32,000 nucleotides of DNA, taken from Cyanobacteriota bacterium. GTDB lineage: Bacteria > Cyanobacteriota > Cyanobacteriia > Cyanobacteriales > Microcystaceae. Made by a program: the position numbers and the translations under genes. Shown here piece by piece: positions 7,546 to 25,804 of this stretch. The stretch's first letter is position 1. Each line of letters opens with the position of its first letter. Below the pieces are notes generated by a model, which saw only the letters and a program-made list of their open reading frames with translations, ran no database searches and was not told the DNA's origin. The stretch lies in NCBI GenBank assembly GCA_046304295.1, contig JBKCES010000311.1, forward strand, positions 969 to 32,968. The letters are read 5' to 3'.

Positions 7546-8345
7546 GGGCGCGCCCAGTAATACCAGCCCGTTAAACCTAACAAAAAGAAATAACCCCCCA
7601 CCGCTTCGGCGCTGTAACGCCAACTGGGTTGATGATGGCGCCGGCTCCAGAATTTAAGTTCTCCGGTGTACCCCCTAGCGGCGAGACCCAGGGAAATTTC
7701 CCGGTAGTGATTCAGGGCCCGTTGCAGAAGTTGCCCCGTTAAGAGACTCAAACTATTGAGGCCTGGGCGCCAGGCGCCGTAGCCGCAACGGGACTGCTGG
7801 GCCGTGAGCAATTCCTGCGCCGTAGCCCTGAGAACCGCAATCAATCGATACATCAGCAGAATTAATTCTGTTAGTAGCGGGGGACAACCCCAACGACTCA
7901 GAAGACGAATAATTTCCCAGAAGGGAACCGTCAGCAGAAGAAAGTAGAGACAGGAGGTGAGCGCCAGGGAGCGAAAAACAATCCCTCGACTTTGCTCCAG
8001 TCCCTGTTGGCTGAGGTAGAGATAAACAGGCCCTATCGGCGCTCCCCAGAGAACGTCGCTCCGAAAGGTCGCCAGTTGGTCGGCCCGGCCGGCGCCGATG
8101 ATCCAGGCGGGCAGTCCCAAGAGTAAAAACCCTAGGGGGAGGGAGAGGAGGCGCAGATAAATCCGAGGAGAAATTTGGGCGTATTGAACGACCCAGACAA
8201 AAAGCCAGAGGCTAATTAAAGCCTGGACGGGAATCGGCGCTCCGTAGCCCAAAAGAAAAAGCGCCGCCGCAAACCCCAGTTTATGTTCTGGGGGCAGGGA
8301 GCGCAGTCCATTCCTTTGGGCTAGGGCGTCAAGGGAATAACCCAT
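7539..8345 (-). CDS. cbiQ: ECF/cobalt transporter transmembrane (T) component
   Basis: 268-aa polytopic membrane ORF directly upstream of, and overlapping, the ATPase gene. Length and hydrophobicity pattern are CbiQ-like. Confidence 0.7.
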   Translation of the reverse strand: MGYSLDALAQRNGLRSLPPEHKLGFAAALFLLGYGAPIPVQALISLWLFVWVVQYAQISPRIYLRLLSLPLGFLLLGLPAWIIGAGRADQLATFRSDVLWGAPIGPVYLYLSQQGLEQSRGIVFRSLALTSCLYFLLLTVPFWEIIRLLSRWGCPPLLTELILLMYRLIAVLRATAQELLTAQQSRCGYGAWRPGLNSLSLLTGQLLQRALNHYREISLGLAARGYTGELKFWSRRHHQPSWRYSAEAVGGYFFLLGLTGWYYWARPC

Positions 8346-8348
8346 TAT

Positions 8349-9596
8349 CTAGAGCGCCATGCCGAGGTATTTCGCCACAGTTTGAACGTCCTTATCGCCC
8401 CGGCCGGAGGTATTAATCACAATCCGGGGATTCCCCGTCAGTTGGGGGCAGAGGGTTTCTAGGTAAGCGAAGGCGTGGGCCGTTTCCAGCGCCGGAATAA
8501 TGCCCTCCAGTTGGGAGAGTTTTTGCAGGGCGGCGATGGCTTCGGCATCGGTGACGCTGTAGTATTCCGCCCGGCCGGAGTCCTTGAGAAAACTGTGCTC
8601 GGGCCCGACGCCGGGGTAATCCAAACCGGCGCTGATGGAATGGGCTTCCGTCACCTGACCGTCCGCGTCTTGCAGTAAATAACTCATGGCGCCGTGGAGC
8701 ACGCCGGGTTTACCCATGGTTAAGGTGGCGGCGTGGTGACCGGAGGCGACGCTTTCCCCCGCGGCTTCCACCCCGATAATGCGCACCTCGGCGTCGTCGA
8801 GGAAGTCGTAGAACAGTCCCATGGCGTTGGAGCCGCCCCCCACGCAGGCCAGTAAAATATCCGGCAGACCGCCCCATTTCTCCTGACACTGGCGCCGGGT
8901 TTCCTGCCCGATGACCCGATGGAAGTCCCGCACCATCATGGGATAGGGATGGGGCCCCGCCACGGAGCCGAGAATGTAGTGGGTGGATTCCACATTGGTG
9001 ACCCAGTCCCGAATGGCCTCGGAGGTGGCGTCCTTGAGGGTGCCCGTGCCGGCGCTCACCGGTTGCACCCGAGCGCCGAGTAAATTCATGCGGAAGACGT
9101 TGAGCTTTTGGCGCTCCATGTCCTCCACCCCCATATAAATGACGCAATCCAAGCCAAAGCGGGCGCAGACCGTAGCGGTGGCTACCCCGTGTTGACCGGC
9201 GCCGGTTTCGGCGATAATCCGAGCCTTGCCCATCCGTTTGGCCAGTAAAACCTGCCCGAGGGCGTTGTTAATCTTGTGGGCGCCGGTGTGGTTGAGGTCT
9301 TCCCGCTTCAGGTAAATCTCGGGGCCGCTTCCGTCGGGGCGGGCGTAATGCTGGCTCAGGCGCTCGGCGAAATAAAGGGGGCTGGGGCGCCCCACATAAT
9401 CTTTGAGGAGGCCGTTCAATTCCGCCTGAAACGCAGGCTCGTCCTTCACCCGTCGATAGGCGTCCTCTAACTCGGCCAAGGCGGGCATCAGGGTTTCCGG
9501 GACGTATTTGCCGCCGAAGCGCCCAAAGCGCCCCAGAGCGTCGGGGTATTGACTAATGGGTCGGAGAGCGGGGGAGACAAGAGGAGTAGTGGTCAT
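8349..9596 (-). CDS. trpB: tryptophan synthase beta chain
   Basis: Hallmark motifs [11 protein letters not shown] (PLP lysine), GGGSNAMG and [11 protein letters not shown]. Confidence 0.95.
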
Positions 9597-9672
9597 AGGG
9601 GGAAAGAACGGCGACGGTCTCTGATTATAGCCTAGGCCCTAGCGGCGCTCTCAACTGGCGGCCCATTCCAGT

Positions 9673-10125
9673 CTAGAGGGTGGCGGAGCCGGGATAGTAT
9701 TTCAATTCGTCGACAATGTAGGTGACGACGGCAGGTTCCCCGGAAGGTAGGGCGATGACCTCCCAGGTCTGGTAGGCGTCCAGAACAATACGCTTACTCT
9801 TGGCATCCGGCACCGTCCAGACGCTGGCTTCCCACTTGACCACCACTTTGACGAGGGTTTTTTCCCCTTCGACGCCGATCAGTTCCACGGATTTTACTTC
9901 ATGGACTTCGTCAAAAAAGATATTGATCACTCCCGGTAGATCGTCGCCGCCCTGATACCAGGCGATAAATTTATCCATCCCTTCTAGGGTGGCTTCCGGG
10001 AAGACCATTTTCAAGCCTTCCGGGGCGAGGAGGGGGGTGATTTCTGCCACGGGAGCGTGGACATCTAGTTTTTTGTACCAACCTTCGGCAAAGGTCTGGA
10101 GTTGGGCTTGGGTAAAGGCGCTCAT
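9673..10125 (-). CDS. hypothetical protein, possibly NTF2/SnoaL-like fold
   Basis: Clean 150-aa ORF with host-like composition. The fold suggestion rests only on size and an alternating beta-rich C-terminal pattern. Confidence 0.55.
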   Translation of the reverse strand: MSAFTQAQLQTFAEGWYKKLDVHAPVAEITPLLAPEGLKMVFPEATLEGMDKFIAWYQGGDDLPGVINIFFDEVHEVKSVELIGVEGEKTLVKVVVKWEASVWTVPDAKSKRIVLDAYQTWEVIALPSGEPAVVTYIVDELKYYPGSATL

Positions 10126-10267
10126 GGGACTTTCCTCTCGTTTAGAGTAGAGAATTTTCCCTATCCTAGAAGGATTTGCCCGGAACGGCGCTGTTTGGGG
10201 GGCGGGTTCGCCCTAGGGAAGATGGTAAAATAAACCCTCATCGCTCAGTCCCCTAGGGAAACCCTCC

Positions 10268-12829
10268 ATGACCGCCCCTGCCGACCGCATCATCGCCACC
10301 GACCTCCGCAACGAAATGTCCCGCTCCTATCTGGAATACGCCATGAGCGTGATCGTGGGTCGGGCCTTGCCGGACGCTAGGGACGGGCTGAAACCGGTGC
10401 ATCGGCGCATTCTCTACGCTATGTACGAACTCGGACTGACGCCGGATCGTCCCTTTCGGAAATGTGCAAGGGTGGTGGGGGAAGTACTGGGGAAATATCA
10501 TCCCCATGGGGACACGGCGGTCTATGACGCCCTGGTGCGCATGGCTCAGGATTTTTCCATGCGGAACCCCCTGATTAACGGGCACGGCAACTTCGGCTCG
10601 GTAGATAACGACCCCCCGGCGGCCATGCGTTACACCGAATGCCGTCTGCAAACCATCGCCACTAACGGCCTTCTGCGGGATATCGAAGCCGACACGGTGG
10701 ATTTTATCGATAACTTCGACGGCTCCCAGCAGGAACCCACTGTGCTCCCGGCCCGCCTGCCCCAACTGCTCCTCAACGGCTCCTCCGGTATCGCCGTGGG
10801 GATGGCCACCAATATTCCGCCTCACAATTTAGGAGAATTGATTGATGGGACAATTGCTTTAATTCATAACCCAGAACTCACGGATTTGGAGTTGATGCGC
10901 TACATCCCCGGCCCCGACTTTCCCACCGGCGCCCAAATTCTGGGTCGGAGCGGCATCCGGGACGCCTACACCACGGGCCGCGGCTCCATTACTCTGCGAG
11001 GGGTGGCGGACATTGAAACCCTAGAGCAACGAGGGCGGCAGGATAAGGAAGCGATTATTATTACCCAACTGCCTTACCAAACCAATAAGGCGGCGCTGAT
11101 TGAGCGTATCGCTGAGTTGGTGAATGAGAAAAAAATCGAGGGGATTTCCGATATTCGGGACGAGAGCGACCGGGACGGGATGCGGATTGTCATCGAGCTG
11201 AAGCGGGACGCCTATCCCCGGGTGGTGCTGAATAATCTCTATAAACAAACGCCAATCCAAAGTAATTTCGGCGCTAATATGCTGGCCTTGGTCAATGGCG
11301 AACCCCTGACCCTAAACCTCCGGCGCTTTTTGGCGGTCTTTTTGGAGTTTCGGGTGGAGACCATCACCCGGCGGACGCAGTATGAACTGCGGAAGGCCGA
11401 AGAGCGGGATCACTTACTCCAGGGCCTGCTCATCGCGCTGGATAACCTCGACGCGGTGATTCGCCTCATTCGCGGCGCCGCCGACACGGCCACGGCTAAG
11501 GGGGAACTGGTGGAAAGTTTTGGTCTCTCGGAAGTCCAAGCCGACGCCATTCTCCAGATGCAACTGCGGCGCTTGACGGCGCTGGAGGCGGACAAGATCC
11601 AAGCCGAGCACGCCGAGCTTCAGGAGAAAATCCGAGATCTTCAGGATATTTTGGCGAAGCGGGAACGAATCGACCAAATTATCGAAGAGGAACTGACCCA
11701 ACTGAAAACCCTCCACGCCACGCCGCGCCGCACGGTGATTATTCAGGACAAGGGGGGCTTAGTGGATACGGATCTGATCGCTAACGAGCCGGCCATCATC
11801 CTCCTCACCGAGCAGGGTTATATCAAACGAATGCCCGCCAATACCTTCGAGACGCAAAATCGGGCCACCCGGGGTAAAGCCGGCGCCAAGATTAAGGAGG
11901 ACGACGGAGTAGAGCACTTCCTCTCCTGTTGCGACCACGACCGGATTCTCTTTTTCAGCGACCGGGGCGTGGTTTACGGTCTCAACGCCTACCAAATTCC
12001 GGTGGCCAGCCGCGCCGCGCGGGGGATTCCCATCGTTCAGATGCTCCCCATTCCCAAGGATGAAAAAATCACTTCTCTGGTGCGGGTGGTGGAGTTTGCC
12101 GAAGACACCTATTTTGTTATGCTCACCCGCCAGGGCTTTATCAAAAAAACGGCGCTGGCGGCGTTCCGCAGTATCCGGGCCAACGGCTTGATCGCCATTA
12201 CCCTCGAAGAGGGCGACCAACTCCGCTGGGTGCGGTTAGCCAAGGAAGAGGACAGCATTATCATCGGCTCCCGGCAGGGGATGGCCATTCATTTCAAAGC
12301 CGACGCCCAGGAACTCCGGGCCGTGGGACGCTCGGCTCGGGGGGTGAAGTCGATGAAACTCCGCAAAGCCGACGAGTTGATCAGTCTGGATATTCTGCCC
12401 AGTCAAATTGTGGCCCAAATCAGCGCCGCAGAGGATGGCCCGGAAGAGGAGGAAGAGCTGGAAATTTTGCCGGAAGGGGATAATCCCGTGCCCTGGGTTC
12501 TAGCCATCACCGCTAAAGGCTTTGGCAAACGGGTGCCGGTGACCCAATTCCGTCTTCAACACCGGGCCGGGATGGGCGTCAAAGCCATTCGTTTTAAATC
12601 CGACAGCGATAAACTGATCGCCCTGCAGGTAGTCGGCGCCGAGGATGAGTTAATGCTAGTTACCAATCGGGGTATTATTATTCGCCAAGCCGTTAAGGAT
12701 ATTTCCCCCCAGTCCCGCAACGCCACCGGCGTCCGGGTTCAACGCCTAGACGAAGACGACGCCATCGCCGCCGTGGCGCTGGTGCCCCCCTCGGCGGAAG
12801 GAGAAGAGTCCAGCGCCGATGAGGGCTAA
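10268..12829 (+). CDS. gyrA: DNA gyrase subunit A
   Basis: N-terminal motifs [24 protein letters not shown] and GKYHPHGD, an active-site region containing AAMRYTE, C-terminal beta-pinwheel repeats and an acidic tail. Confidence 0.95.
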
Positions 12830-12971
12830 GTTTTGGATCGTCCGGCGCTGTCCGCGCCCCAGTTCCTAATTTCGGCGTTAGTGGGATGATGGGTTAGCGA
12901 TGGCGTAATGGTTCGTCTCTTTTCGCTATAGTTAAGCAATCCCCTGAGCGATATAGGGCGGAAGGACTACG

Positions 12972-13292: not shown

Positions 13293-13354
13293 AATTTCAT
13301 GGTCCTCTTAGGAGACCACTCTTGGTCAATTTCAGCGCAAGGGTAATTTAAATC

Positions 13355-14312: not shown

Positions 14313-14325
14313 ATAAACTCTATGA
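14313..14325 (+). repeat. 13-nt direct repeat ataaactctatga, left copy (overlaps the endonuclease ATG)
   Basis: An exact copy recurs at 15406-15418. The two copies bracket the endonuclease ORF. Confidence 0.7.
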
Positions 14326-15374
14326 AAGCTAAAAAAGCTCTTGACACTGTTATTAATAAAGCCAGAGTCCATTTTTATAAACCTATTCAAATAGCAGAGA
14401 TTCTACATCGAGATCGTGTCTATGGTGATATAGATCTTTCTGATTTGTCGAGTTATAAAAATTTGTCTAAGAAATGGCGAGATATTATTTGTAATCAATT
14501 CTTAGGCCGTACATCAACATCATCAGCTCGCTATCAAGATGATCTTTTTAATGAGAATGCTGTCCCGCCTAACTTGTTAAATGAGTTAGGAGAAGAAAAC
14601 CGGAATAAAAATGGAATCGTTGAAGCCTATATTTACAGGAAATTTGAGAGTAAATTATCACAAATGACGATGGGTCTGGGTTATTGTTCTGAGCATAGTA
14701 AAGAAAATTTTGATGTGCAAGAGTTTCTAAGCTTGTTTTGGCATGAGCCTGGACTAAAAAGAAGCATAGATAAAATTTATGAAATTATTGTTTTTTCGCT
14801 ATTTTCATCTCTCATTGACAGCTTAGATATTTTTGTTGAAATCTCTATTGATAACAACAAAGCTCCTATTATAGAGGAATTTAAAGAATTTGCTCATAAG
14901 GTAATCTATCTATCACCGATGGAAGATAGCCTAAAATTTAAAGCAAAAGTTCATAGAGTTGGCGTAACTAATGCTGCGGATAGAGGAATTGATATGTGGA
15001 CAAGTTTTGGTCTTACTATTCAAGTTAAACATGTATCTTTAACTGAAGATAAAGCTCAAGATATTGTTTCATCAGTTTCTTCTGATAGAATTGTTATTGT
15101 TTGTAAAGATACAGAAGAAAAGATTATCTTGTCTATATTAAATCAAGTAGGTTGGAAATCAAAAATACAAAGTATCATCACTGAAACAGAGCTAATCGGT
15201 TGGTATGAAAAAGCACTCAGAGGTAAATATGCAAATATTATTGGTGATCAGCTACTTCAAACTATCAACGATGAAATCAAACTTGAATTCCCTATAACTG
15301 ACGATTCTGAATTCACCTCCTTTCTGGAAGAGAGGGGATACACAAATCTATCTGATTCTTTATGGGAAGCTTAA
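14322..15374 (+). CDS. type II restriction endonuclease, HaeII-family-like (predicted RGCGCY)
   Basis: 350-aa ORF starting 13 nt after the methyltransferase stop. The N-terminus (ALDTVINKARVHFYKPIQIAEILHRDR) and the size match my recollection of the HaeII family (Pfam RE_HaeII). A candidate PD-(D/E)xK-like core is DRGIDMW...TIQVKH. GC is about 30% in the lines I sampled, and I found no GCGC tetramer in the gene. Confidence 0.6.
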   Translation: MKAKKALDTVINKARVHFYKPIQIAEILHRDRVYGDIDLSDLSSYKNLSKKWRDIICNQFLGRTSTSSARYQDDLFNENAVPPNLLNELGEENRNKNGIVEAYIYRKFESKLSQMTMGLGYCSEHSKENFDVQEFLSLFWHEPGLKRSIDKIYEIIVFSLFSSLIDSLDIFVEISIDNNKAPIIEEFKEFAHKVIYLSPMEDSLKFKAKVHRVGVTNAADRGIDMWTSFGLTIQVKHVSLTEDKAQDIVSSVSSDRIVIVCKDTEEKIILSILNQVGWKSKIQSIITETELIGWYEKALRGKYANIIGDQLLQTINDEIKLEFPITDDSEFTSFLEERGYTNLSDSLWEA

Positions 15375-15380
15375 TTCTGT

Positions 15381-15485
15381 GATCAACTCATCGATCAAAT
15401 TGTTTATAAACTCTATGATTTAACCCCAGAAGAAATCGCCATCGTCGAAGGCCGGGAATCGGCGCTGGTGCTAGGTAAACTTTAG
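15381..15485 (+). pseudogene. C-terminal remnant A of the type IIG-like gene
   Basis: Translates as DQLIDQIVYKLYDLTPEEIAIVEGRESALVLGKL*. The IDxxVYxLYxLTxEEIxIVE tail is characteristic of COG1002-type R-M fusion proteins. Coordinates 15413-15471 recur at 17434-17492. Confidence 0.55.
15406..15418 (+). repeat. 13-nt direct repeat ataaactctatga, right copy
   Basis: Exact match to 14313-14325. It lies inside remnant A, 32 nt after the endonuclease stop. Confidence 0.7.
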
Positions 15486-15898
15486 GGTTCAAACCAATTT
15501 TCCAAAGTAAGATTATCAAACTCCGAAAAATCTTGGATATTACGAGTTACTAAAATTAGGTCATTGACAGCGGCCGTACTTGCAATTTGTCCGTCTATAA
15601 AAGCTGGTGTTTTCCCTTTTTGAGATAAGCGGACTCTTTCCCTAGCGTGCCATCTCGCCGCCTCTAAATTATAATCAAAAACCGGTAAGCTCAAAATAGA
15701 ATCTTCTACGTAACGCGATAAAACCTCTCGCTTTCTTGACTGCGGCAATCTCCAGCAACCATAGAGAATTTCTGAAAGGACAACACTACTAGTGCCGATC
15801 TCAAAACGGTACTGATTTAAATAACTCAAAACCTTCTGATTCGGATTAGGACGACACGGCTCGGATAAAATATTTGTATCCAGCAAGAATCTAATCAT
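15482..15898 (-). CDS. vapC: PIN-domain toxin (VapC family)
   Basis: 138-aa ORF starting MIRFLLDTNILSE with a conserved acidic Asp, plus later acidic residues typical of PIN domains. It overlaps the upstream small ORF by 4 nt (ATGA). Confidence 0.85.
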   Translation of the reverse strand: MIRFLLDTNILSEPCRPNPNQKVLSYLNQYRFEIGTSSVVLSEILYGCWRLPQSRKREVLSRYVEDSILSLPVFDYNLEAARWHARERVRLSQKGKTPAFIDGQIASTAAVNDLILVTRNIQDFSEFDNLTLENWFEP

Positions 15899-16140
15899 TG
15901 AATTTCCACATCTCTCCCTGAGCTTCGATCTCGTAAATCTGCAAAATCTTCATCAGTAAAAATCAGTACTTCCTCTTCAATCACCTGTCGAAGTTGTAAG
16001 ACCCCTTGCCAAAAAGCGTCCCCCGTTTTTTCAGCGGGACTTGAATCAGCCCAACGTTTCTGAAGCCGAGAAAACAAGAGCAATTGGTCTGTAGAGGACA
16101 AATCATCTAACTCCTGAATAATTTCCTGTAAAGTCATCAC
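15895..16140 (-). CDS. putative antitoxin partner of VapC
   Basis: 81-aa acidic ORF, translationally coupled to the PIN gene in the standard upstream antitoxin position. I did not recognise the family. Confidence 0.6.
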   Translation of the reverse strand: MMTLQEIIQELDDLSSTDQLLLFSRLQKRWADSSPAEKTGDAFWQGVLQLRQVIEEEVLIFTDEDFADLRDRSSGRDVEIQ

Positions 16141-16234: not shown

Positions 16235-16459
16235 ATGGCAGAAGTAAACGTTTATTATGACTCGATGGGAAATACTCTAACCATCTGGTTTGGGGAACGA
16301 TCCTCAGAATATCTCTGCGAAGAAACAGGAGACGAAGTGATTTTGATGAAAAATCAACAAGGGGAGGTCATCGGCTTTGAAAAAATCAACTATACGATTA
16401 CCGAGAATACCAACCTAAAAATCTCCCTCGAAACCATGCCCTTCGGCGCCTTAACCTGA
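16235..16459 (+). CDS. DUF2283-family small protein
   Basis: 74 aa. YYDSMGNTLTIWFGE...VILMKNQQGEVIGFEKINY matches the DUF2283 pattern. AAGGAG Shine-Dalgarno at about 16221-16226, and a TATAAT box at 16179-16184. Confidence 0.7.
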   Translation: MAEVNVYYDSMGNTLTIWFGERSSEYLCEETGDEVILMKNQQGEVIGFEKINYTITENTNLKISLETMPFGALT

Positions 16460-16495
16460 AAATAGGATGATCCATCACACAGTTAAGCCATCGCC

Positions 16496-17413
16496 ATGAG
16501 TCACTATAAAACCATAGATTTATTCGCCGGTATTGGCGGCATACGGCTCGGCTTCGAGAAATACAGGTGTCAAACCGTCTTTGCCTCCGAGTGGGATCAA
16601 GCCGCTCAAACCATCTATGAAGCCAATTTTGGGGAGAGACCCTTTGGCGATATTAACCTCATAGCGCCGTCAGAAATTCCCGACCATGACATTTTACTAG
16701 CCGGTTTTCCCTGTCAACCCTTTAGTCTCGCCGGGAAAGGTCTTGGTTTTGCCGATACTCGGGGAACTTTATTTTTTAACATTGAAAAAATTTTAGACAC
16801 CAAACGCCCCCAAGCTTTTTTACTTGAAAATGTCCGGCGCTTGAAAACCCATAATCAAGGACAAACCTTTAGCGTTATTCTCGACCGATTAACAAATTTG
16901 GGCTATACCGTCTATTATCAAATTTTAAACTCCCTCGACTTTGGCGTTCCCCAAAAGCGAGAACGAATTTATATTGTCGGTTTTCAAGAAAAGCTAGATT
17001 TTAACTTTCCTCAACCCCTAGGATACTACAAACCCCTAACAGAAGTTTTAGAACCAGACGCTCAAGTCCCTCAGTGGTATTTCCTCTCGCCGCATCTTCA
17101 AGAAAAGCGCCGAAAATATCTGAAAGAAACGCCGCCTTTTCCCTCCATTTGGCATGAAAATATTAGCGGCAATGTTTCCGCCTTACCCTACTCCTGCGCC
17201 CTCAGAGCGGGCGGTAGTTATAATTATCTAATTGTTAACGGTGTCCGGCGCTTAACGGAGCGAGAAATGCTCAGACTACAAGGATTCCCGGAAGATTTTC
17301 GTATTCCCGTTCCCTACTCCCAAGTTCGTAAAGTCGCCGGTAATTCCGTCACCGTTCCCGTGATTGAAGCCATCGCTCAAGCCATGATGACGGCGCTGGG
17401 AAGCTTAATCTGA
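16496..17413 (+). CDS. DNA (cytosine-5) methyltransferase, copy 2 (orphan paralogue with no adjacent endonuclease)
   Basis: 305 aa, colinear with copy 1 and without indels over about 298 aa. I estimate about 85-87% amino-acid identity by eye. All the catalytic motifs I checked are intact. The gene is GC-richer than copy 1 and carries five RGCGCY sites against one in copy 1. Confidence 0.9.
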   Translation: MSHYKTIDLFAGIGGIRLGFEKYRCQTVFASEWDQAAQTIYEANFGERPFGDINLIAPSEIPDHDILLAGFPCQPFSLAGKGLGFADTRGTLFFNIEKILDTKRPQAFLLENVRRLKTHNQGQTFSVILDRLTNLGYTVYYQILNSLDFGVPQKRERIYIVGFQEKLDFNFPQPLGYYKPLTEVLEPDAQVPQWYFLSPHLQEKRRKYLKETPPFPSIWHENISGNVSALPYSCALRAGGSYNYLIVNGVRRLTEREMLRLQGFPEDFRIPVPYSQVRKVAGNSVTVPVIEAIAQAMMTALGSLI

Positions 17414-17433
17414 AATATTTTAAACGAGATACC

Positions 17434-17492
17434 CTATGATTTAACCCCAGAAGCAATTGCCATCATCGAAGGCCGGAAATCGGCGCTGGCGC
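17434..17492 (+). pseudogene. C-terminal remnant B of the type IIG-like gene (duplicate of 15413-15471)
   Basis: 54/59 nt identical to remnant A. Translates as YDLTPEAIAIIEGRKSALA. It follows the copy-2 methyltransferase stop after a 20-nt spacer. Confidence 0.55.
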
Positions 17493-17671
17493 AATCACGC
17501 CGAGGACAGTATCCCGTTATACAATTACGATTTGGCGTTAACTCAGAAAAGCTCATCCAGTAAGGGTTCTGGCTCCCCTTCTCCCAGAATTGGATTGCTT
17601 TTACCACCTATTTGATGCTTTTGTCCTTGCGCTGACGAGATTCTTTAAAAAAGCTGACCGCAAGCTGGTAA

Positions 17672-18388
17672 TCAGACGGAGAGAAACTCTTGAATAATCT
17701 CCTGACTGAGATCCTGAGTTTGACCGCTGGCAACAATGCCGCCCTTCTGCATGGCGTAATAGCGATCCGCCTGGCGCACAAAGTGGAGGTGTTGCTCCAC
17801 CAGTAGAACGGAAATTTGGGTTTCTCGAATGATGCGTTTCACCACCGCTTCGATTTCTAAAATAATTGAGGGTTGAATCCCTTCCGTGGGTTCGTCCAGG
17901 AGTAATAATTGCGGTTTTCCCACCAGTGCCCTAGCGATAGCCAATTGCTGTTGCTGACCGCCACTCAGGTCGCCTCCCCGGCGGGCAAGCATGGTTTTGA
18001 GCACAGGAAACAGCTCGAAAATTTCTGAAGGAATCCGTTCCTGACCCCGGCGCCCCTGGGGCATCGCCTCAAAACCCAGTAATAAATTTTCCGCCACCGT
18101 CAAACGGGGAATAATGTCCCGACCCTGGGGCACGTAGCCGATACCCGAACGAACCCGGCGGTCTGTGGTTTGGTTGCGTAAATCCCGCCCCTGGAAAAAG
18201 ACCGCACCCTGACGGGGCGCCAGCAGACCCATGATGGTTTTGAGAAGGGTCGTTTTGCCAACGCCGTTGCGCCCGATTAAACAAACCATTTCCCCCGGTT
18301 GGACGCTGAGATCCACCTCCCGGAGAATATGGCTTTCGCCGTAGTAAACATCGAGACCGCTAACTTGCAACATGAGGTCGGGATTCAT
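17672..18388 (-). CDS. urtE: urea ABC transporter ATP-binding protein UrtE
   Basis: Walker A GRNGVGKTT, signature LSGGQQQ, Walker B LLLLDEP. It is the last gene of a urtABCDE-ordered cluster. Confidence 0.9.
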   Translation of the reverse strand: MNPDLMLQVSGLDVYYGESHILREVDLSVQPGEMVCLIGRNGVGKTTLLKTIMGLLAPRQGAVFFQGRDLRNQTTDRRVRSGIGYVPQGRDIIPRLTVAENLLLGFEAMPQGRRGQERIPSEIFELFPVLKTMLARRGGDLSGGQQQQLAIARALVGKPQLLLLDEPTEGIQPSIILEIEAVVKRIIRETQISVLLVEQHLHFVRQADRYYAMQKGGIVASGQTQDLSQEIIQEFLSV

Positions 18389-19131
18389 TCCGGCGCCGCT
18401 CCTAAATAGACTTCAATAACTCGGGGGTCGTTTTGCACTTCGTCCATGGAACCTTCGCAGAGGACGGTTCCCTGATGAAGCACGGTGACCTGGCGGGCGA
18501 TTTGGCGGACAAACTCCATATCATGTTCGATGACGATAATGGAATGGCTTTCCGCCAGCGCCAATAAGAGATTGCCCACATTTTCCGTTTCCTCGTCCGT
18601 TAACCCCGCCACCGGCTCGTCCACCAGCAGTAAATCCGGCGATTGAATCACCAACATGCCGATTTCTAGGCGCTGTTTTTCGCCGTGGGATAAAAAGGTG
18701 GCTTTGAGGTCGGCTTTGGCCTCTAAACCAATGGTTTCCAACAAACTAGCCACATGGCGACTTTCCGTGGCGGAGGGAGCGTTAAAAAGGGTGGCAAAGA
18801 CACTTTTACGTTTATTGGCCACCAAATCGAGATTTTCCCGGACGGATAAATTGAGGTAGATCCGGGGGGTTTGGAATTTGCGGCCAATGCCCAAGCGAGC
18901 AATTTGGTATTCCGCTAGGGGACGCAGGTCTTTGCCTTTAAAGAGAACCCGACCCTGGGTGGGTTTAACCTTGCCGGTGATCACGTCTAAAAAGGTGGTT
19001 TTACCGGCGCCGTTGGGGCCGATAATGACCCGCAACTCCCCGGTTTCCATGGCGAAATTAAGCTGGTTCAGCGCCTTAAAGCCGTCAAAATCCACCGTCA
19101 GATTTTCAATCTCTAAAATCGAATTACTCAT
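18385..19131 (-). CDS. urtD: urea ABC transporter ATP-binding protein UrtD
   Basis: Walker A GPNGAGKTT, signature LSHGEKQRLE. The probable start is MSNSILEIENL at 19131, overlapping the urtC stop. The track ORF start at 19269 is unlikely. Confidence 0.9.
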   Translation of the reverse strand: MSNSILEIENLTVDFDGFKALNQLNFAMETGELRVIIGPNGAGKTTFLDVITGKVKPTQGRVLFKGKDLRPLAEYQIARLGIGRKFQTPRIYLNLSVRENLDLVANKRKSVFATLFNAPSATESRHVASLLETIGLEAKADLKATFLSHGEKQRLEIGMLVIQSPDLLLVDEPVAGLTDEETENVGNLLLALAESHSIIVIEHDMEFVRQIARQVTVLHQGTVLCEGSMDEVQNDPRVIEVYLGAAPE

Positions 19132-20254
19132 GCTCCAATTGCTCCCGTTCCTGTTGAACCTCGGGATTGACCTCCAGCGCCGGATAGGTGAGGAGTTTCG
19201 GGCTTCGTTTAGCGGCGAAGAGTTGGGCCAGTCCGCCCAAAATACCGTTAGGAAGGACAGTGACCACAATTAAGAATAACGCGCCCTGAAAGAAGAGCCA
19301 GATTTCGGGAAAACTTTCGCTTAGGAAACTTTGCCCCAAACGGACTAAGAGCGTCCCTAAAATCGCGCCGACTAAGGTGGCTCGACCCCCCACCGCGACC
19401 CAAATGACAATTTCAATAGAAAAGGCCACCTCCATAATGCTGGGGGTAATAATGCCCGTTTGCACTGTGTAAAGCGCTCCCGCCACCCCAGCGATGGCGC
19501 CGGAAAGGGCGAAGATAAAGACCTTAAAGCCCGTGGGGTCATAGCCGGAAAAGCGCACTCGGGTTTCGTCGTCCCGGATGGCTAGGAGGAGGCGCCCAAA
19601 GCGTCCGGTGGTGAGCCAGCGGCAGAGGAGATAAACCAACAGTAAGGAGAGGAGGGAAAGCTCGTAAAAGGCCACTTGCACCCGATTATCGCTGACCAAT
19701 AGACCGAAAATGGTTTGGGTATCGGTTTTTAGTCCGTTGGTGCCGTTAATTAGCTTTTGCTGACCGTTAAAAAAGTTATAAAACACCAACAGCGCCGCCT
19801 GGGTCAGGATGGAAAAATAGACCCCCTTAATGCGGTTACGGAAGATGAGATAGCCTAGTAAACCCGCCACAATGCCCGGAACTAGGATTAAGCTAATAAT
19901 GGTCACCGGCAGGGAATGGAAGGGTTGCCAGAGCCAGGGCAGGGACTGGACGCCGTAGAGGGTGAAAAACTCCGGCAGTTGCCCCTCCGGTAATTGCAGG
20001 TTTAAATACATCGCCAGGGCGTAACCCCCGAGCGCAAAGAAAATCCCGTGGCCGAGACTGAGTAAACCCGTATAACCCCAAATTAAATCCACCCCCACCG
20101 CCACAATGGCGAGGGAAACAAAGCGCCCCAACAGCCGCAGGCGAAAGGCGGGGATCAGCGCCGGTAAAACTAAGCCCCCAATAACTAAAAGGGCGACAAT
20201 AATGCCGATTTCCCACAACCTTCGGCGCTGTTTTTCCTGAGCAGTTTGATTCAT
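19124..20254 (-). CDS. urtC: urea ABC transporter permease UrtC
   Basis: Branched-chain-amino-acid-type (LivM-like) permease in the urt cluster. Confidence 0.9.
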   Translation of the reverse strand: MNQTAQEKQRRRLWEIGIIVALLVIGGLVLPALIPAFRLRLLGRFVSLAIVAVGVDLIWGYTGLLSLGHGIFFALGGYALAMYLNLQLPEGQLPEFFTLYGVQSLPWLWQPFHSLPVTIISLILVPGIVAGLLGYLIFRNRIKGVYFSILTQAALLVFYNFFNGQQKLINGTNGLKTDTQTIFGLLVSDNRVQVAFYELSLLSLLLVYLLCRWLTTGRFGRLLLAIRDDETRVRFSGYDPTGFKVFIFALSGAIAGVAGALYTVQTGIITPSIMEVAFSIEIVIWVAVGGRATLVGAILGTLLVRLGQSFLSESFPEIWLFFQGALFLIVVTVLPNGILGGLAQLFAAKRSPKLLTYPALEVNPEVQQEREQLEHE

Positions 20255-20296
20255 AGTTGACCTACGAGGATGTTGATCTAGGCTTAATTAGTCCCC

Positions 20297-21454
20297 CTAT
20301 AGTTCCGCGGTGCGACCCTTGGGCGGAAACAGACCCGCGGGTTTAATTTGTAAAAAGGCGATAATCAGGGCGAAGATCACCACTTTAGCCATACTCGTGG
20401 TGGCGAAAAACTCAAAAAAGCTTCCCAAACCTGAGCCGAGGGAGAGCGCCAAACTGCTACTACCCACAATAATCAGGTAATTGAAAACCCCAATGGCCAG
20501 CGCCGCCACGATAGTTCCCAAGAGATTGCCGACGCCCCCCACCACCACCACCATAAAGGTGTCCACAATGTAGTTTTGGCCGGTGTTGGGGCCCACGGAG
20601 CCGAGAAAGCTGATGCCGCAACCGGCGATGCCCGCCAACCCCGACCCAAGGGCGAAGGTAAGGGCATCCACTTGAGCCGTGGGAATTCCTAAGCAGGCGC
20701 TCATGGTTCGATTCTGAGTCACGGCCCGAATCCGTAGCCCCCAACTGGAGCGGTTCAAAAACCAATAGGTTCCGAAAACGCAGAGGACAGTTAGGGCGAT
20801 GATAAATAGACGGGTGTAGGGCAGTTGGAAATCTCCGATGGGCAAACCGCCCCGCAACCATGCCGGTGCCGTGACGTCCACATTACGGGCGCTGAACCAG
20901 GGTTTCACCCAAAAATCCTGTTTGGTCTGAAACAGCAAAACCCCCAACGCCGTCGCCAGTGCTGCGGAGAGGGGTAAAAGAACCCACAGGGCTTTCTGTT
21001 GGATTTGGGCCCAATCCAAACGGCGCTGAATCAGCCAAAGACCGCCGAACAACAGCAGGGCGAAGACGACTAACGCCAGAGCCAAGAGCGTGTTGACGCT
21101 CCGAACCAACTGTTGCAGGATCAAGCTCACTCCCCAGGTGGCCAACAAAGTTTCCAAGGGGCGCCCGTAGAGGAAACGAATCACCCCCCGCTCCAGCGCC
21201 AATCCCACCAGCCCGGAAACCAGAAAAGCGAGGGGCAGAGCGGCGAAAATATAGAGGCTAAACCAAGGCTCTCCCAAGGGTTTAAAAAGATTCGGCACCA
21301 CAAAGGTGGTGTAGGCGCCAAGCATGATCAGTTCGCCGTGGGCGAGGTTAATCACCCCCATCAGGCCAAAAACGATGGCCAGACCTAGGGCGGCCATCAG
21401 GAGCACCGCCCCAATACTCAAACCGTCAAAGACGCCGCTCAGTAAAATAGACAT
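20297..21454 (-). CDS. urtB: urea ABC transporter permease UrtB
   Basis: LivH-like permease (INLAHGELIMLGAYT) in the urt cluster. Confidence 0.9.
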   Translation of the reverse strand: MSILLSGVFDGLSIGAVLLMAALGLAIVFGLMGVINLAHGELIMLGAYTTFVVPNLFKPLGEPWFSLYIFAALPLAFLVSGLVGLALERGVIRFLYGRPLETLLATWGVSLILQQLVRSVNTLLALALVVFALLLFGGLWLIQRRLDWAQIQQKALWVLLPLSAALATALGVLLFQTKQDFWVKPWFSARNVDVTAPAWLRGGLPIGDFQLPYTRLFIIALTVLCVFGTYWFLNRSSWGLRIRAVTQNRTMSACLGIPTAQVDALTFALGSGLAGIAGCGISFLGSVGPNTGQNYIVDTFMVVVVGGVGNLLGTIVAALAIGVFNYLIIVGSSSLALSLGSGLGSFFEFFATTSMAKVVIFALIIAFLQIKPAGLFPPKGRTAEL

Positions 21455-21514
21455 TTAAATACAGTTATCAGTTACTCAGTTATCAGCGGTTAAACTGGGT
21501 CTTCCGGTTCCCAT

Positions 21515-21582
21515 CCTTGGAGGGGTTAGGGGTGGGTTAGCGCTCAGGGATAGAACCCACCCCCCTGCCCCCTCCCAAGAGG
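21515..21582. repeat. imperfect GC-rich inverted repeat (hairpin element) in the urtA-urtB spacer
   Basis: ccttggaggggttaggggtgggtt (21515-21538) is nearly complementary to aacccacccccctgccccctcccaagagg (21554-21582). Confidence 0.45.
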
Positions 21583-21636
21583 GGGAGTTCAACTACGACA
21601 GAAATCAGGAGCATGTAGCTTTCCCTCGATGGGTTT

Positions 21637-21708
21637 TATCCCCCTAAATCCCCCTTTGCAAGGGGGACTTTGAACTGAGCTTGTCGAAGTAGGGGTTAGG
21701 GAGGATTC
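21637..21708. repeat. small dispersed hairpin repeat, same family as 3651-3726
   Basis: The core ccccctaaatccccctttgcaagggggactttgaa (21640-21674) matches 3654-3688 at 33/35. A partner arm aggggttagggaggat lies downstream. Confidence 0.55.
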
Positions 21709-21758
21709 TAACGCTTGTATACGCGACAGATCCCAAGTTGAGGAATGGGTTCTCAGAC

Positions 21759-23096
21759 CTAGGAAAACTGCGGCCCCTTAAACTTGCCGGGGGTTTCCGG
21801 CGGTTGAATGTCCGTCCGGGTCCAGTCGCAGGTGAAGCCCTTGGTTTCAGGGACAAACTGGTTCCAGGGAACGGGAATCACGGGGCCCTCGGTGGCCCAA
21901 ACGATGTTGAAGAGACCGTCGTCTCTGACCTCCCCCATCCGCACCGTCTTAGAAATATGGTGGTTGGGGTACATCTTCACCGGCCCTCCCGGCGACGCAA
22001 ACTCCTGACCGATGGCCGCGGCCCGGACGGCGTCTAGATCGTCCGCTGTCCCCGCTTTTTCCACGGCTTGCTTCCAGAGATAAACCATGATGTAGGCCGC
22101 TTCCATGGGGTCGCTGGTCACCCGGTCGGCGCCGTATTCTTTCTGGAACGCGGCTACAAATTTGGCGTTTTCCGGGGTGTCCACGGTTTGGAAATAGTTC
22201 CAAGCGGCGTATTGCCCCAGTAGGTACTCTTTACCGATTTGTCGGACTTCCTCTTCGGCGATACTCACAGACATCACCGGGTATTTATCCGGCTTGAGAC
22301 CCGCGGCTTGCAGTTGCTTAAAGAAAGCCACGTTGCTGTCGCCGTTGAGGCTGTTAAAAATCACGCCGCCATTGGGAAGTGCCTGCTTAATTTTGGTGAT
22401 GATGGGAGTCACTTCCGTATTACCGAGGGGTAAATAGTCTTCCCCGACAGTTTTGCCGCCTTTAGCTTTAAGTTGCTCTTTAATAATGGTGTTGGCCGTG
22501 CGGGGAAAAACGTAGTCGGAGCCGACTAAAAAGAACTCCTTACCCTTGTTTTCCAGCAACCAAGTCACCGCTGGCTCAATCTGCTGGTTCGGCGCGGCGC
22601 CGGTATAGAAAATATTGCGGGAACATTCCTGCCCTTCATACTGGACGGGATACCACAACATGTGGTTTTTCTCTTCAAAAACCGGCAATACCGCCTTGCG
22701 ACTGGCGGAGGTCCAGCACCCAAAGACCGTCGCTACTTTATCCTGATCAATCAATTTTCGGGCTTTTTCCGCAAAAGTTGGCCAATCCGAGGCGGCGTCT
22801 TCCACCACCGCTTCCACTTGTTTACCCAGTACTCCCCCGGCGGCGTTGATTTCTTTAATGGCCAACTTTTCAGCTTCCACCACCGTGGTTTCGCTAATGG
22901 CCATGGTGCCGCTGAGGGAATGTAAAATCCCCACCTTAATCGTGTCTCCAGACGCAGCGCCGGTGGGGGAAGCCGTTCCGCCTTCCGGCGTCGTTTCCGG
23001 CGCCGGATTATTTTGACAAGCTTTCAGGAGCAGACTCGTTCCCAAAGTCGCCCCGCCGTAAAGCAAAAACTTTCTTCTTCCTAATCCTTGCATCAT
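21759..23096 (-). CDS. urtA: urea ABC transporter substrate-binding protein UrtA
   Basis: 445 aa with a signal or lipoprotein-like N-terminus (LLKAC) and a LivK-type periplasmic binding fold. It is the first gene of the urt cluster. Confidence 0.9.
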
Positions 23097-23175
23097 AGAC
23101 TTTAAGTCACCTCTAGGGGGTTGTAGAGTAAAAAATAACCAGCGTGAAGAGTGAGTCGAAACCGCTAAGAGTTTG

Positions 23176-23218
23176 ATACTAAGTCTAGGGTCGGGGATAA
23201 AATGTTATGTACGCTACA
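23176..23218 (-). promoter_or_regulatory. NtcA-type activated promoter of urtA
   Basis: The reverse strand reads TGTAGCGTACATAACA (23218-23203), i.e. GTA-N8-AAC, one mismatch from GTA-N8-TAC. It is followed by exactly 22 nt and then TAGTAT (23181-23176), which fits the TAN3T -10 box. This is the canonical NtcA class II geometry, about 80 nt upstream of the urtA ATG. Confidence 0.5.
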
Positions 23219-23348
23219 AAATCGGCGTTCATGCCCCCTCGGAAGCCTAGTTTTGTCAGTAAAATCACCATAGATAGGCGGGAAATGGCTATACGTTAGA
23301 GTCGCCACCTAACGGAGAGCAGTTCTAGAGCTTTAAGCGCCGGGGGGA

Positions 23349-25016
23349 TTAAGGCTTGGATTGAGTGGGTTGAAACTGGACAATCTTCTCTCCCGAACTA
23401 CGGTAGAGATCCAAGGGTAAATTAGCCTGATGGCTGATCTGTTGTAAAGACCGCTCTAGCTCCTGAATATGGCGGAGGATCTGGGCCTGCTCCTCTTGTC
23501 CTCCCTCCTGGACTCCCCGCTGTAGTCGTTGGAGATAATCTGATTTGAGGACGATTTTAATTCTTTTGGACTCAATTTTATAATCACAACGACGGGGAGA
23601 GCCTACACAAAGGATTTTTAGATTCCGCTGGAGGGACTGGGCCCGGAGTGCCGCTTTTAAATTTTCTTGGCTCTGCTTTTTGGCTAATTGATAACGGGTG
23701 AGGAGAGTTTGAGTCTGGGGACTGAGCCAGCTTTGGGAAGGAATTTGCTTGAGGCTCTCTAGGGCGCTCTGCCAATAGCGAAGGGCTTCTGAGAATTGAC
23801 GACGTTTCCCGGCGCTTTCAGCTTTGTTGGCTAAAACTCGGGCTTGTTCAAGGGTCTTCTGGGCGCGGGTTTCTAAGGATTGTTTGGCTTGCAGTTGTTT
23901 AAACTCGGATTGTTCTAGAGTCAGTTGTTGTTGAGCGAGGGCGTAGAGGTCGGACTCGGGCGGAATCTGCTCTAGGAGTTGCAAACCTTGGCTCCAAAGC
24001 ACTAAAGCCTGTTTAAGTTCTCGAAGCGTTTTGGCTCCTCTAGCCTTGAGTTTCGCCTCTGTGAGCAATTGATTGCCCCGTTGACGCTCTAGGTTGGCTT
24101 GCTGTTGGGCCAAAACCTGCTGGTCAATCTGATGGAGTTGGCGCTGATAATCTTGGGTTTGGGCCATCACTAGGGATTGAAGGGGGCTTTGGGGAGAAAT
24201 TTGCGCCAATAAACGCAGACTCCTATGCCAAAGTTCGCGACTTTGGCGGCTATCGCTCTGACTCTGGGCTTCCTGGGCCAAGCGAGACGCTTCCGCAAAC
24301 AAGTTGAGTTCCCGCCGCCGCGTTTGGTAGGAGTCTAGAAGGGCCTGACTCCGCTGAAAGTGGGGAGACCAAGGGGGAATCGCTTTAAGGTGGCTTAAGG
24401 TGTCTAGCTCTGTCTCTGAAGCGAGTAAGGCCTCAAACTCCGGTGGCAGGCCGAAGCTCTGTAATTGGGCTTGGGCCTGGAGCAATTCGGGACAAGAACT
24501 GAGAACACAGGGACGACTCAGGCCATAACCGAGACTGAGAACAATGCCAGCGCCTAGCCCCCATAGCAGTGGTCGTTGGTGAAATCGGAGCCAGCTCTGA
24601 GCAGACTCCCGCCAATGGTTGGTTAAGACTCTGTCCCAAAGCGACTTGGGCGACTCCCGAGGGGAGAGAACTCCGGAGAACGGAACACTAAAATCCGGCG
24701 CCGGGCTGATCTGGGGCTGAATGGCGCTGGCGTCGCCGTCCCGTAGAGCCAACTCTTCATCTAGGACTAAAAAGATTTGGGGTCTGTAGAGCGCCGTCAA
24801 GCCGTCTTGGGCTAAACAATCCCGAGCTGAGGCGAAAATCGCTGTGCTTTCTAAGAAAGGAGTCGTTTCAAAGTAGAGGGCAATGAGGAGGGTTTCCCCG
24901 TCCAGGCGACAGTGAACGCTCTGGGGAGTCAGGGCAATTTGGTCTCCTTGAAGATGTCTGAGGAGTCTCTTTTCCAGTCGGCCTAAATCGAAGGGAATCA
25001 GTGCCGTGTTGACCAT
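23349..25016 (-). CDS. hypothetical membrane-anchored protein with Q-rich internal repeats
   Basis: 555-aa ORF with a soluble N-terminal domain of about 100 aa, one TM segment (LLWGLGAGIVLSLGYGL, about aa 149-166), then 3-4 repeats of about 65-75 aa. The repeats share W..[SA]L.LL.QIP..S.L...AQ..L..Y. Confidence 0.7.
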   Translation of the reverse strand: MVNTALIPFDLGRLEKRLLRHLQGDQIALTPQSVHCRLDGETLLIALYFETTPFLESTAIFASARDCLAQDGLTALYRPQIFLVLDEELALRDGDASAIQPQISPAPDFSVPFSGVLSPRESPKSLWDRVLTNHWRESAQSWLRFHQRPLLWGLGAGIVLSLGYGLSRPCVLSSCPELLQAQAQLQSFGLPPEFEALLASETELDTLSHLKAIPPWSPHFQRSQALLDSYQTRRRELNLFAEASRLAQEAQSQSDSRQSRELWHRSLRLLAQISPQSPLQSLVMAQTQDYQRQLHQIDQQVLAQQQANLERQRGNQLLTEAKLKARGAKTLRELKQALVLWSQGLQLLEQIPPESDLYALAQQQLTLEQSEFKQLQAKQSLETRAQKTLEQARVLANKAESAGKRRQFSEALRYWQSALESLKQIPSQSWLSPQTQTLLTRYQLAKKQSQENLKAALRAQSLQRNLKILCVGSPRRCDYKIESKRIKIVLKSDYLQRLQRGVQEGGQEEQAQILRHIQELERSLQQISHQANLPLDLYRSSGEKIVQFQPTQSKP

Positions 25017-25124
25017 GCCATTGCCGGGGTAGATTAGAAAGGAAAGAGAGGCTAGGTTCTTAGAGAGTCATTATACTGGAGGCTCCGACCGGATAAATCC
25101 CATGGGGTTTCTGTTTTTAAAACC

Positions 25125-25730
25125 ATGTCTGTTGTTGATTCCCAGTCTTTGATTCAAGGCGTTCTAGAGGGAAAAGTGGTGAGTTTTCCCACCGATACCG
25201 TTCCGGCGCTGGCGGCCCTCCCGGAGCGCTCTGGAGAGATTTATCGGCTCAAACGGCGCTCCGCCGACAAGCCTCTGATTCTCATGGCCGCAGAGCCAAA
25301 GGCTTTTCAACCCTACTTAGGCGGCGCCGGGGAAGACCGAGCCCAGTGGCGACGGATCATGGATCAAGTGTGGCCCGGAGCCGTCACCTTAGTCTTGCCA
25401 GCCTCTCCGGCGGTTCCCCCGGCGCTGAATCCTCGTCAGGACGGCACCATTGGTTTACGGATTCCCGCTTGTCCCCCGGCGTTAGCCATTCTCGCCCAAA
25501 CCGGCCCCTTAGCCACTACCAGCGCCAATCTCTCCGGCGCCGCCCCCCTGCAAACCCTAGCGGAGATTGCCCAAGTCTTCCCCGAAGCTCTTGTGTTGAA
25601 GCTAGAGCCTCCTAGTCTGGTTGTCGGAAGCGGCCAACCCTCCACCGTCGCTCAGTGGCAAGCCGGACAGTGGAGCCTTTTACGCCAAGGGCAGATGCCG
25701 TTCCCCCCGGCGGACGACGACAAAGTTTAG
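25125..25730 (+). CDS. tsaC: L-threonylcarbamoyladenylate synthase (YrdC/Sua5 family, short form)
   Basis: FPTDTVPALAA, KRRSADKPLILM, WPGAVTLVL, IGLRIP and TTSANLSG are the conserved YrdC-domain blocks. Confidence 0.85.
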   Translation: MSVVDSQSLIQGVLEGKVVSFPTDTVPALAALPERSGEIYRLKRRSADKPLILMAAEPKAFQPYLGGAGEDRAQWRRIMDQVWPGAVTLVLPASPAVPPALNPRQDGTIGLRIPACPPALAILAQTGPLATTSANLSGAAPLQTLAEIAQVFPEALVLKLEPPSLVVGSGQPSTVAQWQAGQWSLLRQGQMPFPPADDDKV

Positions 25731-25794: not shown

Positions 25795-25804
25795 TTAAGA
25801 ACCT

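Follow-up and report, generated by a model that had tools for sequence, protein, structure and literature searches.

Solitary Methylases and Iterated Palindromes

In E. coli, the chromosomal C5 methylase Dcm has no restriction partner. Dcm shares homology and target with the methylase of the mobile EcoRII restriction-modification (R-M) system (PMC3424554), and it protects the genome from EcoRII restriction and from post-segregational killing (Seshasayee et al. 2012, PMC3424554). The route to such orphans is acquisition as an R-M system and loss of the endonuclease (R), the methylase (M) being retained and better conserved than the methylases of R-M systems (Seshasayee et al. 2012, PMC3424554). 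In cyanobacteria, alternate iterated palindromes replace HIP1 (GCGATCGC) and are accompanied by methylases able to recognize them; in Calothrix PCC 7103 the palindrome is GGCGCC, found together with two GrCGyC methylases, and a GCGC-type methylase was not found in 97 cyanobacteria (Elhai 2015, PMC4390886). Here, we analyze a 32,000-nt stretch of Microcystaceae DNA (the window; contig JBKCES010000311.1, positions 969–32,968) that carries two related C5 methylase genes: M1, followed by an endonuclease gene, R, and M2, which stands alone. In our view, M2 probably functions as a solitary C5 methylase of the M.HhaI/M.HaeII kind, with the predicted target RGCGCY, and is old, under selection, and born from an M-R pair.

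M2 resembles Dcm in being a solitary C5 methylase homologous to an R-M methylase. It differs in that the solitary copy and a complete R-M system lie 1.1 kb apart in one genome, in bearing a visible deletion scar, in having no vsr partner seen in the window, and in having a target that is hyper-abundant (6.4/kb) rather than mildly skewed. M2 also fits the general orphan route, R being lost or reduced to remnants at 41 of the 130 scorable loci of its family; what sets M2 apart is that its exact breakpoint can be read. The first-pass annotation had placed an orphan beside a still-complete R-M version of itself. M2 does lack an R of its own and R is full length, but in this genome M2 is not an orphan by the operational definition, no cognate R within 10 genes (PMC3424554), as R lies 1.1 kb and four genes upstream.

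The likeness to Calothrix PCC 7103 lies in the absence of HIP1, a GC-rich palindrome at ~1000–2400 per Mb, and two horizontally acquired methylases, whose matching specificity is predicted in the present case. The differences are that M1 and M2 are of the HaeII/HhaI type (RGCGCY, predicted) rather than GrCGyC; that AGCGCC is as enriched here as GGCGCC, GACGCC reaching an observed/expected ratio of only 2.0; that one methylase here has an intact restriction partner; and that the host belongs to the Synechocystis/Microcystaceae neighborhood. M.HhaI (PDB 1mht and related entries) has the GCGC core in common with the M1/M2 family, but it recognizes four bases and its partner is R.HhaI, whereas the M1/M2 family pairs with HaeII-family endonucleases. 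The locus is a new example of two known kinds, the solitary methylase born of an R-M system and the alternate iterated palindrome with a cognate methylase, the specificity of the latter being predicted.

M1 and M2 Are Sister C5 Methylases

The alignment of M1 with M2 spans 298 codons and needs no gaps; identity is 85.9% for amino acids and 80.3% for nucleotides, which bears out an earlier estimate by eye of ~85–87% identity between colinear genes. Both proteins cover positions 1–323 of the 324 in the PF00145 profile. The FAGIGG, PCQ, ENV, QKRER, and GNSV motifs are present in each, so that the earlier statement that catalytic motifs are kept holds. Among 129 columns invariant in the family, M1 has no deviation and M2 has one, the conservative I78L. 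The best solved relative of M2 is M.HhaI (E 1e-65), in a full-length alignment that includes the recognition domain. By homology, M1 and M2 are HhaI-like C5 cytosine methyltransferases, predicted to methylate cytosine at C5.

The divergence of the genes is considerable. The Nei-Gojobori estimates are 1.19 for synonymous divergence (dS), 0.083 for nonsynonymous divergence (dN), and 0.07 for dN/dS; the dS value rejects recent duplication or gene conversion, including the very recent duplicate that the first-pass annotation had named as the contrary case. The content of G and C at third codon positions (GC3) is 0.346 in M1 and 0.433 in M2. From M1 to M2, 62 third-position changes go from A/T to G/C and 36 in the opposite direction (p = 0.011), which agrees with the synonymous bias claimed for M2; the example strings given for it are located at 13397 and 16538. 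The recognition domains are 80% identical, compared with 88–89% elsewhere, and the longest exact run common to the two genes is 26 nt.

In a neighbor-joining tree, M1 is sister to the clade of M2 and its four closest proteins (bootstrap 100/100); the M1 and M2 groups are sister lineages. M1 is nearer to the outgroups (83%) than M2 is (78%), and in a 5.8-billion-protein database nothing outside the two groups exceeds 83% identity to M1 or 78% to M2.

The Scar of a Lost Endonuclease

The last codons and stop of M2, CTGGGAAGCTTAATCTGA, match the 3′ end of a HaeII-family R gene, out of frame. A 13-nt string, TGGGAAGCTTAAT, is identical at 15363–15375, the end of R, and at 17398–17410, the end of M2. 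The frames are CTG GGA AGC TTA ATC TGA at the M2 end and TTA TGG GAA GCT TAA at the R end. HaeII-family endonucleases conserve a Trp close to their C-terminus (..RGYxxLxDxxW(x0-5)-stop), and the string includes its codon; therefore, the string is genuine R sequence, one frame off. Only the last ~17 nt of R survive at the M2 end. Beyond the scar are two short indels and then a 56-nt block, 15413–15468 versus 17434–17489, that is 93% identical (E 2e-17). No R reading frame occurs 3′ of M2, and the M-then-R adjacency of HaeII-type systems is lacking there. Measured on the M1-R template, the missing segment would start at M codon ~300, end at R codon 348, and comprise ~1107 bp, with the junction in a common TGG.

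These sequences indicate that M2 descends from an M-R unit with a right-hand junction like that of its intact neighbor, and that a deletion of ~1.1 kb removed R. With only the R tail left, the gene is a derivative of a HaeII-type R-M system rather than a member of one. The 130 scorable homologous loci comprise 89 with a full adjacent R, 19 with remnants, and 22 with none, and comparison of these loci points to M then R as the ancestral state. The deletion appears to be old, predating the split between the window and L092, because the scar is common to the window and to the metagenome contig L092, both of which show an M2-type gene followed by the R scar and the type IIG remnant. The proposal that the locus captures the R-M to orphan transition is upheld by the scar but needs correction in one respect: M2 did not arise from the neighboring M1-R copy.

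Conservation of the M2 Lineage

The clade is known from a few short contigs and one metagenome-assembled genome (MAG). Only four proteins in the 5.8-billion-protein database are closer to M2 than M1 is, with 92–95% identity. Five M2 orthologues with the same range of identity were found on short metagenome contigs (L001–L004 and L092). In L001 the gene adjoins rpmE-rpsI-rplM and in L002–L004 it adjoins lpxA-like and E2 genes. No R gene lies 3′ of the orthologue in any of the four contigs with readable downstream sequence (L001–L003 and L092); L004 stops ~55 nt past the gene. No relative above 77% identity turned up in a scan of GTDB species genomes and JGI metagenome contigs, and an exact-sequence look-up of M2 found no contig.

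All the orthologues have the five RGCGCY sites of M2 at the same codons. Their pairwise dS is 0.26–0.44 and their dN/dS 0.07–0.15, and the reading frame is intact in all six sequences. The comparison indicates that the M2 lineage has been conserved in relatives under purifying selection since the deletion. A sister organism in sample SRR10063240 has a GyrA 98% identical to that of the window. Between the window and this sample, dS is 0.30 for gyrA, 0.28 for the neighboring orf150, and 0.26 for the M2 orthologue (L002), values that fit vertical divergence of M2 together with its host. Long residence of M2, one of two options left open earlier, is favored by the shared sites, the purifying selection, and the likeness of its dS to that of gyrA.

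The ends of the gene have been less stable. A common leader of ~60 nt, L001 1158–1216 and L092 215–273, resembles M1's leader, in a weak alignment. It appears from these alignments that the region upstream of M2-type genes (16460–16495 in the window) has been replaced at least twice. In L001, nt 150–298 of the gene are M1-like, with 17 mismatches to M1 compared with 25–29 for the other orthologues, and are farther from the other M2-type genes; this segment looks like a recombination tract between two allele types.

Five independent metagenome contigs break inside M2 at 17049–17075, L091 on one side and L087, L088, L089, and L090 on the other. These ends may reflect strain-level structural variation. 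Repeats between M1 and M2 were considered as a cause of the breaks and rejected, given the longest exact common run of 26 nt.

RGCGCY Sites and Composition of the Cassette Genes

M2 has five RGCGCY sites, at 16663, 16836, 17106, 17247, and 17392, M1 has one, at 13695, and R has none, exactly as first reported. When synonymous codons were permuted within each gene (1000 permutations), M2 was expected to have 0.50 ± 0.65 sites and no permutation attained five; expectations were 0.28 for M1 and 0.23 for R. GC content or codon usage is thereby rejected as the cause of the M2 excess. The site counts of M2 and of M1 plus R differ (conditional binomial p = 0.013), as does GC3; equality of the two measures was another outcome that would have spoken against the first-pass annotation. 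Site density is 5.1/kb in M2 with its flank and 1.25/kb in the remainder of the island.

No RGCGCY site at all occurs in 156 of 160 homologous methylase genes, and none of 74 outgroups has one at any of the five M2 positions; polarization by outgroups is limited to these positions, as synonymous sites are saturated at 77% amino acid identity. The codon strings that make up M2 sites are the same as in host genes, i.e., CGGCGCTTG for RRL and ACGGCGCTG for TAL. AGCGCC or GGCGCT, the forms with an A/T flank, account for four of the five M2 sites and for the majority of host sites.

GC3 tells a weaker story. Host genes average 0.66 (range 0.59–0.75), far above the value for M2, and R is at 0.228. 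At 107 homologous loci, the GC3 of the methylase gene correlates with the GC content of the host (r = 0.76), and the regression value for this host is 0.49. The M2 lineage, at 0.43–0.47, is near that value, and the GC3 of M1 suits a host of ~45% GC. Amelioration of M2 toward the host, as first claimed, is therefore partial on GC3; site density is the stronger signal.

The M1-R Unit and the Type IIG Gene

R starts 13 nt past M1, so that M1 has the M-then-R adjacency of a HaeII-type system. R keeps 54 of the 56 residues invariant in 79 homologues; the deviations are Y158F and N228S, the latter inside the conserved ..GLDMWANFGLAIQIKH.. / ..DMWANFG..IQIKH.. segment. R ranks third of 80 for deviations at invariant positions and, judging from these, may be attenuated. 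"Complete", as applied to R, means full length, and its activity is a prediction.

The M1-R cassette is bordered by remnants of another gene. Homologues of the N-terminal remnant, in which there is a weak HSDR_N match, include proteins of 1187–1442 residues, and several of these (1361, 1365, 1187, and 1335 residues) match the remnant at their own N-termini. Full-length type IIG homologues end ..CDKLIDKIVYQLYGLTDEEIAIVE, and a matching peptide, FCDQLIDQIVYKLYDLTPEEIAIVEG.., is encoded right after the R stop codon; therefore, M1-R sits in place of the internal part of a dead type IIG gene. The two remnants that flank the cassette (Table 1) are the ends of a type IIG gene of ~1350 residues, its interior swapped for a 2.1-kb HaeII-type M-R cassette. 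The N-terminal remnant has a GC3 of 0.66 and three RGCGCY sites, CGGCGCCG among them; the C-terminal piece, with a GC content of 0.44, is not host-like. That the C-terminal remnant might be a general part of HaeII cassettes was rejected, as tblastn against 80 loci finds it in this lineage only.

A protein identical to M1 was found only in this population, with no other close M1-type relative. In the sister strain (contig L173), homology to the window stops 40 nt past gyrA, with no type IIG N-terminal remnant there. Low GC3, few sites, and the restriction of the M1 type to this population suggest that M1-R most probably came later, from the same gene pool, and into this strain only.

The Host Palindrome

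The 32-kb window, whose host part (1–12950 and 17560–30600) is ~26 kb, together with a few contigs, is the sample for what follows. RGCGCY occurs 182 times in the whole window, compared with 47.7 expected from dinucleotide shuffles, and at 6.4/kb in the host part. Host genes are ~3-fold enriched over a codon-aware null. The observed/expected (O/E) ratio is 5.0 each for GGCGCC and AGCGCC/GGCGCT, 1.04 for AGCGCT, and 0.05–0.78 for other xGCGCy hexamers. GGCGCC occurs 61–62 times and CGGCGCCG 25 times. HIP1 and CGATCG are both absent from the ~26 kb of host DNA, 7.8 CGATCG being expected. Most gyrA sites fall in amino acid contexts conserved with relatives (GA, AAL, RRL, TAL, and VAL). A separate observation is that CGCG is strongly depleted in the host part, with 40 occurrences where a Markov model predicts 175; CGCGCG and AGCGCG occur once each.

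The same pattern, RGCGCY-rich and HIP1-free, is found in the flanks of every contig with an M2-lineage gene and in the sister strain (GyrA 98%). Outside the clade, the closest relative sampled (GyrA 87%, GC 0.50) has 9 HIP1 per ~10 kb and 0–0.09 RGCGCY per kb. In the DNA surrounding 121 homologous methylase loci of other organisms, the median RGCGCY density is ~0.1/kb and the maximum 2.8/kb, and this host is an outlier among the hosts of homologous methylases. The host has replaced HIP1 with RGCGCY/CGGCGCCG as its iterated palindrome. The enriched degenerate word, AGCGCC being as enriched as GGCGCC, fits HaeII specificity, and RGCGCY is the predicted M2 target. The parallel drawn earlier with HIP1 and its orphan methyltransferases is apt.

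Weighing the History of the Two Copies

A number of points weigh against our reading of M2 as an old, selected, RGCGCY-specific derivative of an M-R pair. The RGCGCY specificity is deduced from homology and, for M1, from the adjacent HaeII-family R; it is also inferred from the M.HaeII literature (PMC6182155). Two recognition-loop changes, G224S and I227V, at positions at least 95% conserved in the family, are common to every M2-lineage protein and might alter flank recognition by M2. No vsr gene or Vsr domain was found in any major open reading frame (ORF) of the window. The vertical history depends on assigning L002 and L173 to one genome, which was done from their common sample and common composition alone. 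M2 orthologues occupy three different neighborhoods, so that either the gene moved or its flanks were replaced. In the window and in L002–L004, sequence upstream of the gene resembles that of other M2 genes for no more than 2 nt ahead of the ATG; an integron-like cassette is a purely speculative explanation for this sharp boundary. Mosaic tracts such as nt 150–298 of the L001 gene weaken tree-based dating. The absence of M1-R from other strains is read from fragmentary metagenome assemblies.

The junctions raise a further difficulty. The same R/type-IIG junction is present in M2 and in M1-R; it implies that one insertion took place in an ancestor and suits two independent arrivals poorly. Moreover, the 56-nt flank is 93% identical although synonymous sites in the genes are near saturation. 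The identical junction and the similar flank, set against near-saturated synonymous sites and mosaic tracts, mean that recombination between alleles belongs in the history.

These junctions could instead be explained by tandem duplication in situ: an M-R-flank unit entered the type IIG gene of this lineage once and was duplicated locally, copy 2 lost its R, and both copies are equally old residents. The units have the identical junction between the R 3′ end and the type IIG remnant, lie in direct orientation 2 kb apart, and are each other's closest relatives. Equal age, however, predicts equal amelioration, and this is not what the genes display: GC3 is 0.35 and 0.23 in M1 and R compared with 0.43 in M2, and sites number 1 and 0 compared with 5. 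Moreover, five other contigs carry the M2 type and the M1 type was seen in no other population, and the sister strain lacks the type IIG N-terminal remnant at the gyrA end, the M2 gene of the same sample adjoining an lpxA-like gene. We consider duplication in situ improbable.

We hold it to be just as improbable that M2 has drifted to another specificity, e.g., GGCGCC or plain GCGC, in which case it would no longer be cognate to R and the two methylases would not be redundant. The idea draws on the loop changes fixed in the M2 lineage (HENIGGNIS to HENISGNVS and YLVVNG to YLIVNG), on the lower identity of the recognition domain, and on the host's AGCGCT ratio, 1.04 compared with 5.0 for GGCGCC and AGCGCC. 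The changes are conservative, however, and the core PFPSIWHEN..SALPYSCALRAGGSYNYL is identical; in addition, the AGCGCC or GGCGCT form of four of the five M2 sites and of most host sites makes the word degenerate like the HaeII target. Finally, that M2 is a decaying, functionless relic with sites produced by composition or chance is very improbable: M2 lacks a native C-terminal tail and a native leader, and related loci have often lost R (41 of 130), but the orthologues' dN/dS is low, 128 of 129 invariant residues are kept, all six frames are intact, and none of 1000 codon permutations gives five sites.

Organization of the Locus

The methylase genes lie in a low-GC island of 4.4 kb (GC 0.33–0.46) between gyrA and urtE, in a host background of 0.52–0.62 (Table 1). 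The host GyrA is 85% identical to that of Synechocystis sp. LKSZ1 and of a Microcystaceae MAG and 81% identical to that of PCC 6803.

Table 1. Features of the island between gyrA and urtE, in window coordinates.
Feature	Position	Strand	Remarks
gyrA	10268–12829		Left neighbor of the island
Type IIG N-terminal remnant, 106 aa	12972–13292	+	Left border of the M1-R cassette; host-like composition
M-R cassette leader, ~60 nt	13293–13354	+	GC falls to 0.40 precisely here
M1, C5 cytosine methylase of the HaeII-type R-M pair, 317 aa	13355–14308	+	PF00145, E 1.1e-93
R, full-length HaeII-family endonuclease	14322–15374	+	PF09554, E 2.6e-149, profile positions 338/338
Type IIG C-terminal remnant C-frag1; reads FCDQLIDQIVYKLYDLTPEEIAIVEGRESALVLGKL-stop	15375–15485	+	Matches the C-termini of full-length homologues
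vapC, PIN-domain toxin	15482–15898	-	PF01850; NCBI name VapC family toxin
Presumed VapB-type antitoxin, small ORF	15895–16140	-	Position and 4-nt overlap with vapC
DUF2283 gene	16235–16459	+	PF10049
M2, solitary C5 cytosine methylase, 305 aa	16496–17413	+	PF00145, E 3.6e-91
Deletion scar, 3′ end of the lost R gene (Trp-Glu-Ala-stop)	17397–17413	+	Out-of-frame tail of M2
Type IIG C-terminal remnant C-frag2, conserved block 17434–17489	17414–17560	+	93% identical to 15413–15468
urtE, urea transporter gene	17672–18388	-	Right neighbor of the island

The spacer between the two methylase units includes vapC, which has a GC content of 0.40 and no RGCGCY site, and the VapB-like ORF, for which no Pfam match was found. 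The DUF2283 gene ends 36 nt before the start of M2, and the two are probably co-transcribed; a scan for promoters and terminators gave signals no stronger than in shuffled sequence. The DUF2283 protein clusters at 90% identity with Microcystis and Snowella proteins, while GyrA is only ~81–85% identical to that neighborhood. The gene was probably exchanged horizontally along with the VapBC pair. At the far end of the window, 31100–32000, past a tadA-like deaminase gene, GC is ~0.40 and no ORF exceeds 58 residues; a further island may begin here, or the stretch may be non-coding or encode an RNA.

A Proposed History and Its Consequences

We propose the following sequence of events. In an ancestral HaeII-type M-R cassette, a deletion of ~1.1 kb, legible in the sequence, fused M codon ~300 to R's final four codons, removing the endonuclease and leaving the out-of-frame R tail and the downstream flank of the cassette. 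Purifying selection has since maintained M2 in a small clade of Microcystaceae-like cyanobacteria, the gene gaining four extra RGCGCY sites, three of them by synonymous changes alone, and a partial rise in GC3. It would keep the ~6 RGCGCY sites per kb of the genome methylated. Later, a sister-lineage M1-R cassette, nested in a dead type IIG gene, would have arrived. Prior methylation by M2 would have made the acquisition of R harmless in a target-saturated genome and, by analogy with Dcm and EcoRII, would cancel the addiction (post-segregational killing) exerted by M1-R.

More speculatively, M2 methylation may feed a repair bias that makes RGCGCY the iterated palindrome of the clade, as in Elhai's model. 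The stronger form of this proposal, that the M2 lineage caused the recent complete switch from HIP1 to RGCGCY/CGGCGCCG through methylation-directed repair that turns near-sites into sites, is one we offer tentatively and regard as rather doubtful. On that view, the foreign M2 gene would itself bear the record of the drive, in its four gained sites.

How methylases lose their R partners and how palindromes come to fill cyanobacterial genomes are long-standing questions that have been argued mainly statistically. At this locus one R-M lineage appears side by side as it was before the transition and after it, with a legible deletion breakpoint. M2 has gained the host palindrome at ten times the expected density, which argues for a continuing process that creates sites in resident DNA rather than for sites placed to serve a local function. 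The palindrome switch is bracketed by close relatives and is an independent replicate, in another methylase family, of Elhai's correlation. If the switch was driven by M2, it would be the cleanest natural experiment so far for his model of iterated palindromes. Furthermore, a full-length HaeII-type endonuclease gene resides in a genome with ~6 sites/kb, compared with ~0.1/kb in typical hosts; this unusual tolerance bears on methylase redundancy and on the "molecular vaccine" idea. A switch driven by M2 would, in addition, demonstrate that a genome saturated with sites can be prepared by an orphan methylase for regaining the cognate restriction enzyme.

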